In this document: positions 1,631 through 4,171 of the stretch, piece after piece
Layout of the letters: every line of letters starts with the position of its first letter
How positions within the stretch are numbered: the stretch's first letter is position 1
Virus record (IMG/VR): IMGVR_UViG_3300029476_000079
DNA length: 4,171 nucleotides
Strand: one strand, 5' to 3'
Source: a virus
Lineage: Duplodnaviria > Heunggongvirae > Uroviricota > Caudoviricetes
Program-made: the position numbers and the translations under genes
Notes under the pieces: model-generated
What the model was told of the DNA's origin: nothing
The model's database searches: none
Seen by the model: the letters and a program-made list of their open reading frames with translations, nothing else

Positions 1631-3175
1631 ATGACCACTATAACCAAAGAGCGACTGCTGACAATCAAGCAGTGGCGCGAAACATACGGACCGGGTAGCA
1701 ACGTTGTACTGCCAGCAGAAGAAGCGGAAGAACTGGCACGGATTGCACTGGCATCATTGGAAGCAGATCCAGTTAAACGAGTTAACTCAGATCAGATGCA
1801 CCGAGTCTGCTTAGAAGCTAATCGCTATTTAGATAAATATGACGCGATGGCGAAAGAGGTAAATAAGTTGCTTGGACGCATCGCCCCGCCAGCGCCAGTA
1901 TTTAACGGCGAATACGGTGACGCATATCAGGGCGCTCGTGAAGACCTGTCCATCTGGAAACGGCGAGCGCTTGAAGCTGATGAGCACGTTCGGCGACTGG
2001 AGCAAATCAATGACCACATGGTGAAAGAGGCGCAGGGAGAATCACGCATGGGCGAGCCTGTAATACGTGAGCCAGCACCGGTAGTGCCTGAAGAAGCAAC
2101 TCCGGAAAACGTAGAAATGCTCTCTGGCTATGTTTCAACGTACAAATTAACCGATAGCGAGCGCGATATTGCTGCCGAAATATGGAACGCCTGCCGCGCC
2201 GCCATGCTTCAGTCCGGAAACTTTCGGGAAAACAAGAATTCGTCAACCAATAATTTTCGGGAAATCGCGGAAACGTCAACCAACTATCCGGCAATTCCTA
2301 GTGAGGTGTTGTCCGCAATCCTGAAGGTTGCCAGGATTCGTGCCGATTTCGATGATTTTGACGGTGACAGGCGAGGTATCGGTGATTGTCTGGATGAGGC
2401 CGAGCAAGAGCTTATCGTTACCATTAACAAATATGCCAGTCAGTTGGCAGCAGAACCGATAGCGACTAATGACGTTCGAGAGCAAACAGCCGTTCCGCCA
2501 ATACAGGCTGATGTCGCGCAAGCAATTGAAAATCTCAAGCAGAAGTTAGTGGAATGCAATCGCTATAACTACTGCGCAGATGCAGTGAAGAACGTAGAGG
2601 ATGCCTGCCGTGCTGTTAGCTATAGCCAAGCCGACAATCAGCCAGCATCTGGCAACCAGGCTGCCGAATCCAATCGCGGTAATGAGTGGACTGGCAATCC
2701 TGATATTGATAACGCCATCATCATGCTCGACCGCATAGATACGCTGGAAAATTGCGATGATGACCGTATTGAGGCTGTTAAGGCTGTTTTGCGTAGACTG
2801 GCAGGCAACTATCCGGATATTCCGGATAGTTCGGTGCCAGCACCAGGAAAGGGCGTCACCGGTGAACGTATCCGAATTAAGCCGCATGTTTATCGCGAAC
2901 TGGTTAACCGTCTCCACGATACAGCGATCAAGTGTGCTGGCACCCAGCAATTACGAGAAAGAATTAGCCGTGTTTTGGGCGACGTTATTACACCAGATCA
3001 TCATAAACAAGCCGAGAAAAGTGGCCTGGAAAGGTGTCACCTTGAGGCGGCATTAAACATTAAGCCGGGGCATACGCTTGGCATTATTGATGCACTATTG
3101 GTTCATAAGATGGCCAGGGCTTTATTGCCGCTGGTGGCTGAAAAGCATGAGGCGGACCATGCCAACGAAAGCTGA
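1631..3175 (+). CDS. Large hypothetical protein, 514 aa, rich in Asp/Glu/Ala/Asn, with an internal 11-aa tandem repeat and an acidic DFDDFDGD cluster; function unknown
   Basis: ATG 1631 preceded by AAGGAG (1619-1624) at 6-nt spacing. A 1545-nt uninterrupted ORF, the longest in the window, makes all antisense track ORFs inside it implausible. No catalytic motif confidently recognised. Confidence 0.8.
   Translation: MTTITKERLLTIKQWRETYGPGSNVVLPAEEAEELARIALASLEADPVKRVNSDQMHRVCLEANRYLDKYDAMAKEVNKLLGRIAPPAPVFNGEYGDAYQGAREDLSIWKRRALEADEHVRRLEQINDHMVKEAQGESRMGEPVIREPAPVVPEEATPENVEMLSGYVSTYKLTDSERDIAAEIWNACRAAMLQSGNFRENKNSSTNNFREIAETSTNYPAIPSEVLSAILKVARIRADFDDFDGDRRGIGDCLDEAEQELIVTINKYASQLAAEPIATNDVREQTAVPPIQADVAQAIENLKQKLVECNRYNYCADAVKNVEDACRAVSYSQADNQPASGNQAAESNRGNEWTGNPDIDNAIIMLDRIDTLENCDDDRIEAVKAVLRRLAGNYPDIPDSSVPAPGKGVTGERIRIKPHVYRELVNRLHDTAIKCAGTQQLRERISRVLGDVITPDHHKQAEKSGLERCHLEAALNIKPGHTLGIIDALLVHKMARALLPLVAEKHEADHANES
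2219..2284 (+). repeat. Imperfect in-frame tandem direct repeat, 2 x 33 bp, inside the 514-aa CDS
   Basis: aactttcgggaaaacaagaattcgtcaaccaat (2219-2251) versus aattttcgggaaatcgcggaaacgtcaaccaac (2252-2284), 25/33 identical. Encodes NFRENKNSSTN / NFREIAETSTN. Confidence 0.6.
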
Positions 3176-3443
3176 ATTACAGGTGCGCGTAGATGAGCTT
3201 GAAAAAGAGAACGCGAGCCTCAAAAAAATGCTGTCGCGGGCGGAAAGGGAATTATCAGGCAAATTATTGCCAGAAGAACTGCCACCAGCAGATATACCTG
3301 ATCGAGTGTCCTGGTGGATGAAGTATTTCCGTGCACCGTGGGAGGCGTTTTGGTGCTACGACCATCGCAGATGGTGTGATGAACTTGATAGCAGTTTTCC
3401 CTACTTTGCGGAAGGGAACACCTGCCCTCAATGCAGGGGATAG
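3159..3443 (+). CDS. Hypothetical small protein, 94 aa: N-terminal coiled-coil-like segment plus C-terminal four-Cys zinc-ribbon-like motif (C-x6-C-x15-C-x2-C)
   Basis: ATG 3159 preceded by GAGG (3149-3152) at 6-nt spacing. Overlaps the stop of the 514-aa gene by 17 nt. Ends at TAG 3441-3443. The track's longer start at 3078 has no SD and lies inside the upstream gene. Sequence MPTKAELQVRVDELEKENASLKKMLSRAERELSGK...WCYDHRRWCDELDSSFPYFAEGNTCPQCRG. Confidence 0.6.
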   Translation: MPTKAELQVRVDELEKENASLKKMLSRAERELSGKLLPEELPPADIPDRVSWWMKYFRAPWEAFWCYDHRRWCDELDSSFPYFAEGNTCPQCRG

Positions 3444-3529: not shown

Positions 3530-3810
3530 CCTTATCAGATGCCGGAGCTTCCCATTAAGCAGAATGGCCTCAGAAAACACTTTTACGCTGTGCTTTATCC
3601 CCTCTGTTTCACTTTTCAGCGTCAAAATAAAGCGCAATTGCTTATTAGCCTGATTCGGATTCAATACACGAATTTGCAGTTCGTCTATGCTGTTTCGCAA
3701 TGGGATTGATGCCACCACACTGGTGCAGTCTCTGATTGTCTGAATTGAACGGCTAACATTGAGAACGTTATTGTGCATGTGCCTGATCCACTAACTCCTG
3801 GAGGTTTCTT

Positions 3811-3957
3811 GTGTCAGATCGAAATATAGCAGCTAAAAGCCAGGAAGAGCGAGACAAGGTGAACGTAGACCTTGCCGCCAGCGGCGTTGCTTACAAACCC
3901 CGCTTTCACAAACTATGCCTTTTCAATGTATACTGTGTGAATAAACAGTATCATTAA
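3811..3957 (+). CDS. Candidate small ORF, 48 aa (MSDRNIAAKSQEERDKVNVDLAASGVAYKPRFHKLCLFNVYCVNKQYH)
   Basis: GTG 3811 preceded by GGAGG (3800-3804) at 6-nt spacing. Open to TAA 3955-3957. The 3' third overlaps the promoter and LexA box of the downstream gene. Too short to judge by composition; below the ORF-track length cutoff. Confidence 0.25.
   Translation: MSDRNIAAKSQEERDKVNVDLAASGVAYKPRFHKLCLFNVYCVNKQYH
3905..3934 (+). promoter_or_regulatory. Candidate sigma70 promoter for the UmuD'-like gene: -35 TTCACA (3905-3910), 18-nt spacer, -10 TATACT (3929-3934)
   Basis: Hexamers resemble TTGACA/TATAAT. The -10 overlaps the LexA box, the usual layout for SOS-repressed promoters. Identified by eye only. 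Confidence 0.4.
3931..3950 (+). promoter_or_regulatory. LexA operator (SOS box) TACTGTGTGAATAAACAGTA
   Basis: Exact CTGT-N8-ACAG core with flanking TA...TA, matching the consensus TACTG(TA)5CAGTA. Lies 17 nt upstream of the ATG of the UmuD'-like gene. The E. coli umuDC operator, as I recall it, is TACTGTATATAAAAACAGTA. Confidence 0.8.
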
Positions 3958-3967
3958 GGTAAAACGC

Positions 3968-4171
3968 TATGGGCTTCCCTTCTCCTGCGGCGGATTATGT
4001 TGAAAGCCGTATTTCTCTTGATCAGCAACTAATCAGACATCCTTCAGCGACCTACTTCATGCGGGCGGCAGACAGCCATCACCGTGAGGGAATATTGCAA
4101 GGTGCTTTGCTGGTGGTTGATTCCTCACTTACTCCGGTTGATGGCTCACTGCTTATATGCGCTATGGAGGG
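3968..4171 (+). CDS. umuD: UmuD'-like (HumD-like) peptidase S24 family protein, 3'-truncated by window end; natively lacks the N-terminal arm of UmuD
   Basis: ATG 3968 with AGG (3957-3959) 8 nt upstream. Translation [68 protein letters not shown] aligns to E. coli UmuD residues 25 onward ([68 protein letters not shown]). In-frame stop at 3938-3940 with no start codon between it and 3968, so the protein genuinely begins at the Cys24/Gly25 cleavage-site equivalent. Confidence 0.85.

Follow-up and report, generated by a model that had tools for sequence, protein, structure and literature searches.

At the 3' end of a 4,171-nucleotide (nt) stretch of viral DNA, IMG/VR record IMGVR_UViG_3300029476_000079 (hereafter the window, by which the whole stretch is meant), lies what is very probably the 5' part of humD, a gene for a UmuD'-type protein. 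It occupies positions 3969–4171 on the plus strand and is ended by the window edge after 67 of about 129 codons. A plausible ribosome-binding site, AAGG, is located at 3956–3959 (+), 9 nt before the ATG, where nearly all relatives have GAGG, and is followed by an in-frame TAA stop at 3960–3962 (+). Further upstream is a LexA operator (SOS box) at 3931–3950, TACTGTGTGAATAAACAGTA, that ends 18 nt before the ATG and is homologous to a site annotated in phage P1. It overlaps a sigma-70 promoter-like site at 3905–3934 (+). These elements are in part read through by a truncated copy of hot, the P1 homolog of the gene for the DNA polymerase III theta subunit, at 3811–3957 (+).

Translation from the ATG at 3969–3971 gives a frame that remains open to the end of the window, with 67 codons plus 2 nt and no stop. 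The resulting fragment is identical at all 67 residues to the UmuD-like protein of phage D6 (orf108, YP_009914785.1) and at 66 of 67 to P1 HumD (P1_gp103, YP_006569.1), with a single Ile/Val difference at position 63. The latter comparison had been proposed as a check in a first-pass annotation made from the sequence, as had a profile match to Peptidase_S24 (PF00717), which was also obtained for the 67 amino acids (aa) of the fragment (E = 2e-5), its 24.6 bits exceeding the cutoff of 23.3. The NCBIfam equivalog NF051876 ('HumD family translesion DNA polymerase') was matched at profile positions 1–67 of 129 with 117.4 bits, just under the whole-protein cutoff of 120 because half of humD is outside the window; the full-length D6 protein scored 213.5 bits against the same cutoff. 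The fragment also matched PHROG 811, 'UmuD-like protein' (E = 3e-33). A LexA- or repressor-type S24 protein was considered as a candidate and rejected, as the LexA equivalog reached only 16 bits versus 117 for HumD.

The position of the start codon determines whether the protein carries an N-terminal segment that could be removed. Two in-frame stops precede the humD ATG, TAA at 3960–3962 (9 nt upstream) and TAA at 3942–3944 (27 nt upstream), and the nearer one is separated from the ATG only by AAC and GCT, neither of which is a start codon. A longer HumD N-terminus is thereby excluded, the two stops together barring any extension. The first-pass annotation had placed an in-frame stop 30 nt upstream; that distance was wrong, while its conclusion that no longer N-terminus exists now stands more firmly. 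It had also equated the start of the protein with Gly25 of UmuD, which agrees with searches against solved structures, where residue 2 of the D6 protein, a glycine, was paired with the first residue of the UmuD' chain 1UMU_A (E = 1.7e-23) and, in 8GMT_B, with residue 25 of the full-length UmuD. Only the initiator Met stands before HumD Gly2, so that neither a scissile Ala/Cys-Gly bond nor a removable N-terminal segment is present. The same arrangement was observed in 80 related viral loci from IMG/VR that were chosen by their HumD protein and not by their operator. The protein starts M-GFPSP in 79 of these and MDFPSP in the remaining one, and the nearest in-frame stop lies 9 nt upstream in 41 loci, 15 nt in 36, 27 nt in one and 114 nt in two. 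Judged from its sequence, the product of the window gene is the analogue of the cleaved form of UmuD, not a self-cleaving precursor. The proposal that this UmuD homolog is synthesised from the outset in its UmuD' form thus holds, on the combined basis of near-identity to the characterised P1 HumD, the equivalence of Gly2 to Gly25 and the upstream stops.

The LexA box had been predicted at 3931–3950, and TACTGTGTGAATAAACAGTA was found at exactly this position. A search for TACTGT-N8-ACAGTA with at most one mismatch returned this single occurrence in the window and none in 200 dinucleotide-preserving shuffles. All 12 outer consensus positions are intact and the central 8 bases are A/T-rich, although they do not form the ideal (TA)n; the quality of the operator was judged from consensus positions and natural variation alone. 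The P1 record labels the homologous 20-mer 'LexA binding site in the regulatory region of lxr and humD'. Its sequence, TACTGTATAAATGAACAGTA, ends 19 nt before the ATG in P1 as opposed to 18 nt in the window, and each of the 80 related loci has a CTG-N10-CAG box whose end lies 18 or 19 nt upstream of the ATG. Among these, 15 sequence variants of the box occur; the CTG and CAG triplets are invariant and the centre varies.

The promoter-like site consists of a -35 hexamer TTCACA (3905–3910), an 18-nt spacer and a -10 hexamer TATACT (3929–3934), with 10 of 12 consensus matches. The position 3905, from which the feature had originally been drawn, coincides with this -35 hexamer. The consensus scan of the region found 2 sites versus 0.9 expected by chance and is by itself weak evidence; the same promoter sequence occurs in D6, RCS47 and CP104667. 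TATACT overlaps the predicted LexA box, a layout that is usual for LexA repression by occlusion and is in line with the SOS-type control of transcription that had been suggested for the gene.

A second promoter-like site, weaker and on the minus strand (3941–3912, TTCACA, 18 nt, CATAGT, 9 of 12 matches), shares the LexA box. The divergent side of the box is occupied by lxr in P1 and by a dinI homolog in phiKO2, and the next minus-strand gene in the window is a conserved 116-aa open reading frame (ORF) at 3778–3428 (−) that belongs to phrog_2594. This ORF might, by prediction, be SOS-influenced.

Comparison with Escherichia coli UmuD and UmuD' (PDB 1UMU, 1I4V, 1AY9 and 8GMT) revealed a shared S24 fold and near identity in the 31 residues that follow the cleavage site. 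Unlike HumD, UmuD has a 24-residue arm and needs RecA-stimulated cleavage at Cys24-Gly25, and its gene shares an operon with umuC. HumD in turn lacks one residue ahead of the DS motif and has an additional tail of about 11 residues. The P1 and D6 proteins both have equivalents of Ser60 and Lys97: alignment to the UmuD structures placed the DS of the window's ADSH on the DS of UmuD GDSM, which holds Ser60, and the Lys of RVKRY in the full-length D6 protein on UmuD Lys97. The catalytic-serine position is accordingly retained, as had been claimed, but its retention is less meaningful than was implied and says little about function across the family, because the aligned stand-alone homologs outside the P1 lineage have Thr or Tyr at the Ser60 position.

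These stand-alone homologs (N15 gp26, phiKO2 gp23, HK140 gp28, HK639 UmuD, APC_JM3.2, Hafnia yong1 and Pantoea G19) are 41–67% identical to D6 HumD. As in the P1/D6 family, they mostly have the pre-truncated M-GFPSP start (phiKO2 is annotated from a GTG and HK639 from three codons upstream), lack umuC among their annotated neighbours and usually have a LexA box, 28–64 nt upstream. Their genomic positions differ, with tail-fibre, partition or integrase genes as neighbours. At the Ser60 position these proteins, all outside the P1/D6 lineage, have Thr (Tyr in yong1), and HK639, yong1 and Pantoea G19 have Met, Arg or Ala in place of Lys97. Most stand-alone phage homologs share a C-terminal tail, (S/G)EFDD.P.., which E. 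coli UmuD does not have. In this small aligned sample only the P1/D6 lineage, including the present copy, keeps the catalytic Ser together with the Lys, the latter as read from the full-length D6 and P1 proteins.

The genomic surroundings of humD were evaluated at the DNA level. Between 3750 and 4171 the window is 97.6% identical to D6 and 95% to RCS47, and about 92% identical to P1, P7 and SJ46 from 3921 onward. The gene is annotated as humD or UmuD-like in the D6, RCS47, P1, P7 and SJ46 records, and the D6 features within 3750–4171 are annotated 'UmuD-like protein' and 'DNA polymerase III theta subunit'. The region gave 716 matches in 683 of 5,426 complete E. coli genomes, and of the 716, 699 were on plasmids. 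Wherever a match was collinear with the window over its full length, it was to a plasmid of approximately 90–102 kb; most of these plasmids are non-mobilizable. In P1-like phage plasmids the interval pmgT-humD is one of eight highly variable regions (PMC9603915).

The hot gene that adjoins humD is incomplete, encoding 48 aa where 83–87 are normal. Agreement with HOT of RCS47 and P1 extends over the first 29 residues, beyond which the sequence diverges, and the match to the NCBIfam theta subfamily (E = 2e-10) is confined to residues 4–34; the remainder of the ORF reads through the humD promoter and the LexA box. Compared with RCS47, 217 bp are deleted here, including the hairpin-forming sequence that follows hot in RCS47; the junction falls within an imperfect direct repeat, CCAGCG..GC(T/C)TACAAA. 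An identical junction occurs in D6 and in 2 of the 80 loci. The hot-humD interval is structurally very variable, with 125 to 1340 nt separating a conserved hot motif from the humD ATG. The window thus resembles P1 in the M-GFPSP start, in the equivalent placement of the LexA box and in having hot upstream on the same strand; unlike P1, which has a full-length hot and a divergent lxr between hot and humD, it has undergone deletion of both. With D6 the window shares the hot truncation junction as well as the promoter sequence. D6 differs in two regulatory point positions, its box reading ...CTGTATG... and its ribosome-binding site GAGG, and in its upstream cargo, where a 360-aa pmgU-like ORF takes the place of the window's 514-aa ORF.

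A UmuC-like partner had been thought possible beyond the window, but every relative examined argues against this. The flanks of the 80 loci contained no Y-family polymerase. In D6, P1, RCS47 and two E. coli plasmids humD is followed by an unnamed 140-aa ORF and/or phd-doc and in no case by a polymerase gene, and phd lies 3' of humD in 74 of the 80 viral loci, beginning 72 or 665 nt after it. When 138 loci were searched by tblastn with the UmuC-type protein of Cronobacter phage ENT39118 (Pfam domains IMS, IMS_C and DUF4113), nothing was recovered but the probe's own source. None of the 60 sampled rows from 104 phage records with a Y-family polymerase was P1-like, and the organism tally of the 104 leaves no room for P1-like Escherichia or Salmonella records. 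Since no Y-family polymerase is found near humD in the relatives, host UmuC would be expected to act as the partner of HumD. In P1-like phage plasmids humD has been described as a LexA-regulated SOS gene within a conserved humD-phd-doc cluster (PMC9603915).

Taken with the identity of the protein, this arrangement suggests the following mechanism. HumD, of about 129 aa, corresponds to UmuD without its 24-residue N-terminal arm and would not need RecA-stimulated autocleavage for activation. Host LexA would repress humD by binding the operator at 3931–3950 that overlaps the promoter -10, and removal of LexA upon DNA damage would allow HumD to be made. As has been reported for P1 HumD, the protein would then dimerise and combine with host UmuC and RecA into a translesion polymerase of the Pol V type. 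McLenigan et al. in 1999 are said to have found that P1 HumD restores mutagenesis in strains unable to make UmuD', and that it reportedly forms dimers and binds UmuC and RecA filaments. Published work on P1 HumD, as represented in the papers that cite it, reports functional substitution for UmuD'. Induction of humD after DNA damage was sought in the P1 Ref paper, where the gene appears only as a C1-unregulated control gene in a thermal induction. We infer that the present copy would be expressed and regulated as P1 humD is, despite its variants in the operator and the ribosome-binding site.

We therefore read 3969–4171 as the beginning of humD in an Enterobacteriaceae plasmid prophage of the P1/D6 family, encoding an SOS-made UmuD' for host UmuC, with a probability of about 93%. 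Three observations weigh against this. The window holds only 67 of the approximately 129 humD codons, so that the Lys97-equivalent lysine and the C-terminal tail fall beyond it; an A-to-G change at box position 7 (3937), private with respect to D6 and the relatives, could lower LexA affinity; and the change of GAGG to AAGG at 3956 could lower translation. Each of the two changes was seen once among the 80 related loci, and the pair together in none of the collections searched. A 51-nt exact pattern spanning operator and start codon had no match in genome, viral or metagenome contig collections, and a 31-nt pattern with the window's operator variant had none in viral contigs, where the common variant matched 43 loci. 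Together with the hot deletion these changes might retune humD expression in this copy. Taken further, the private substitutions, the truncation of hot and the loss of the post-hot hairpin-forming sequence, upon which read-through from upstream is conceivable, could indicate a decaying or poorly regulated copy in which humD is not properly SOS-controlled or translated. This appears unlikely, however, as the coding part has no amino-acid change relative to D6 and the 12 outer box positions are kept. Natural box centres vary widely, one of them with G at position 7, and AAGG is still a usable ribosome-binding site that is found in one other locus. The best complete E. coli genome match over 3880–4010 is 98.5% identical, and two differences in 130 nt agree with the background divergence of roughly 2–3% between the window and its relatives. 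D6, moreover, is a viable phage and has the same deletion. An ordinary cleavable gene of the UmuD/MucA type, its true upstream start having been missed through a wrong call or a sequence error, would be compatible with the S24 fold and the retained Ser60-equivalent serine. The probability of this is nearly negligible given the two upstream stops, the nearer of which is followed by no start codon before the ATG, the identical start in D6, P1, RCS47 and all 80 viral loci and the lack of a Cys/Ala-Gly site before Gly2; the upstream DNA furthermore consists of promoter, operator and what is left of hot, a different gene.

The first-pass annotation had seen a lambdoid-type prophage context, with P1 HumD merely as a precedent. 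A stand-alone UmuD' gene of a lambdoid prophage, in a lineage apart from P1 humD, does have parallels: HK140, HK639 and the P22-like APC_JM3.2 have M-GFPSP-type homologs beside tail or integrase genes, with a LexA box upstream in HK639 and APC_JM3.2 (HK140 is without a box within 80 nt), and genes of the Ead/Ea22 type, common in lambdoid prophages, are present in the left part of the window. This placement is nevertheless very unlikely. The homologs of these three phages are 57–65% identical to D6 HumD, with 61–65% for those of the HK140/HK639 type, as compared to 99–100% between the window and P1 or D6 for the residues available; the neighbour directly upstream is the P1 gene hot and not a tail-fibre or integrase gene; and both the E. 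coli matches, almost all on plasmids, and the collinear plasmid matches point elsewhere. The lambdoid impression arises because Ead/Ea22-type cargo genes occupy the variable region of P1-like plasmids. A different main role for HumD, either modulation of RecA filaments or of DNA polymerase III, or Ser-Lys cleavage in trans of UmuD or another S24 substrate, is also improbable. It would fit the Ser (ADSH) and Lys (RVKRY or RIKRY) kept in P1-lineage proteins, the conserved C-terminal tail GEFDDCPV(M/I/L), which is absent from UmuD and of unknown function, and a CRISPR interference (CRISPRi) screen that scored humD as non-essential for P1. Set against it are the reported substitution for UmuD' and the other aligned stand-alone homologs, which have Thr or Tyr for Ser and of which 3 of 7 have lost the Lys, so that protease activity is no requirement of the family. 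That P1-type HumD keeps an S24 protease activity and acts in trans, for example by cleaving host UmuD in heterodimers, is a long shot; if true, enzymatic activation of the host UmuD pool would be added to plain UmuD' substitution.

The remainder of the window contains cargo genes, and those to the left have matches at thousands of sites in E. coli chromosomes as well. An ORF at 146–790 belongs to phrog_2457, and an Ead/Ea22-like ORF lies at 778–1245 (Pfam, E = 7e-32); several further ORFs in the left part match phage families of unknown function. Two runs of N, 36 at 735–770 and 43 at 1110–1152, fall inside the phrog_2457 ORF and the Ead/Ea22-like ORF. At the position of the first, the relative NZ_CP117014.1 has exactly 36 nt of ordinary coding sequence, which makes this run a mask and not a gap; the alignments found end at the second.

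A 514-aa ORF of unknown function at 1631–3175 (+) has no Pfam match and looks composite, with phrog_60/3323 at its N-terminus, phrog_14306 at residues 183–329 and phrog_21459 at residues 365–514. In the closest plasmid several coding sequences are annotated as partial within the stretch that matches the window. The 514-aa ORF is followed by a 121-aa ORF at 3078–3443 (+). As the match of this ORF to phrog_3797 begins only at residue 28, its true start is probably the ATG at 3159, which would overlap the end of the 514-aa ORF by 17 nt. Weak, sub-threshold matches to bZIP or coiled-coil-like profiles were also recorded for it. An Rfam scan of the whole window returned no RNA family.

As a feature, this humD is ordinary and already described, being one further copy of a known gene, and the window adds it to those carried by P1/D6-type plasmid prophages, which are very common in E. 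coli. The practical value of the result is in correct annotation: the locus is not a new lambdoid-prophage system, and no polymerase partner is to be expected downstream. HumD itself represents a textbook case of a mobile element in which the RecA-cleavage checkpoint of SOS mutagenesis is skipped while LexA control is kept.

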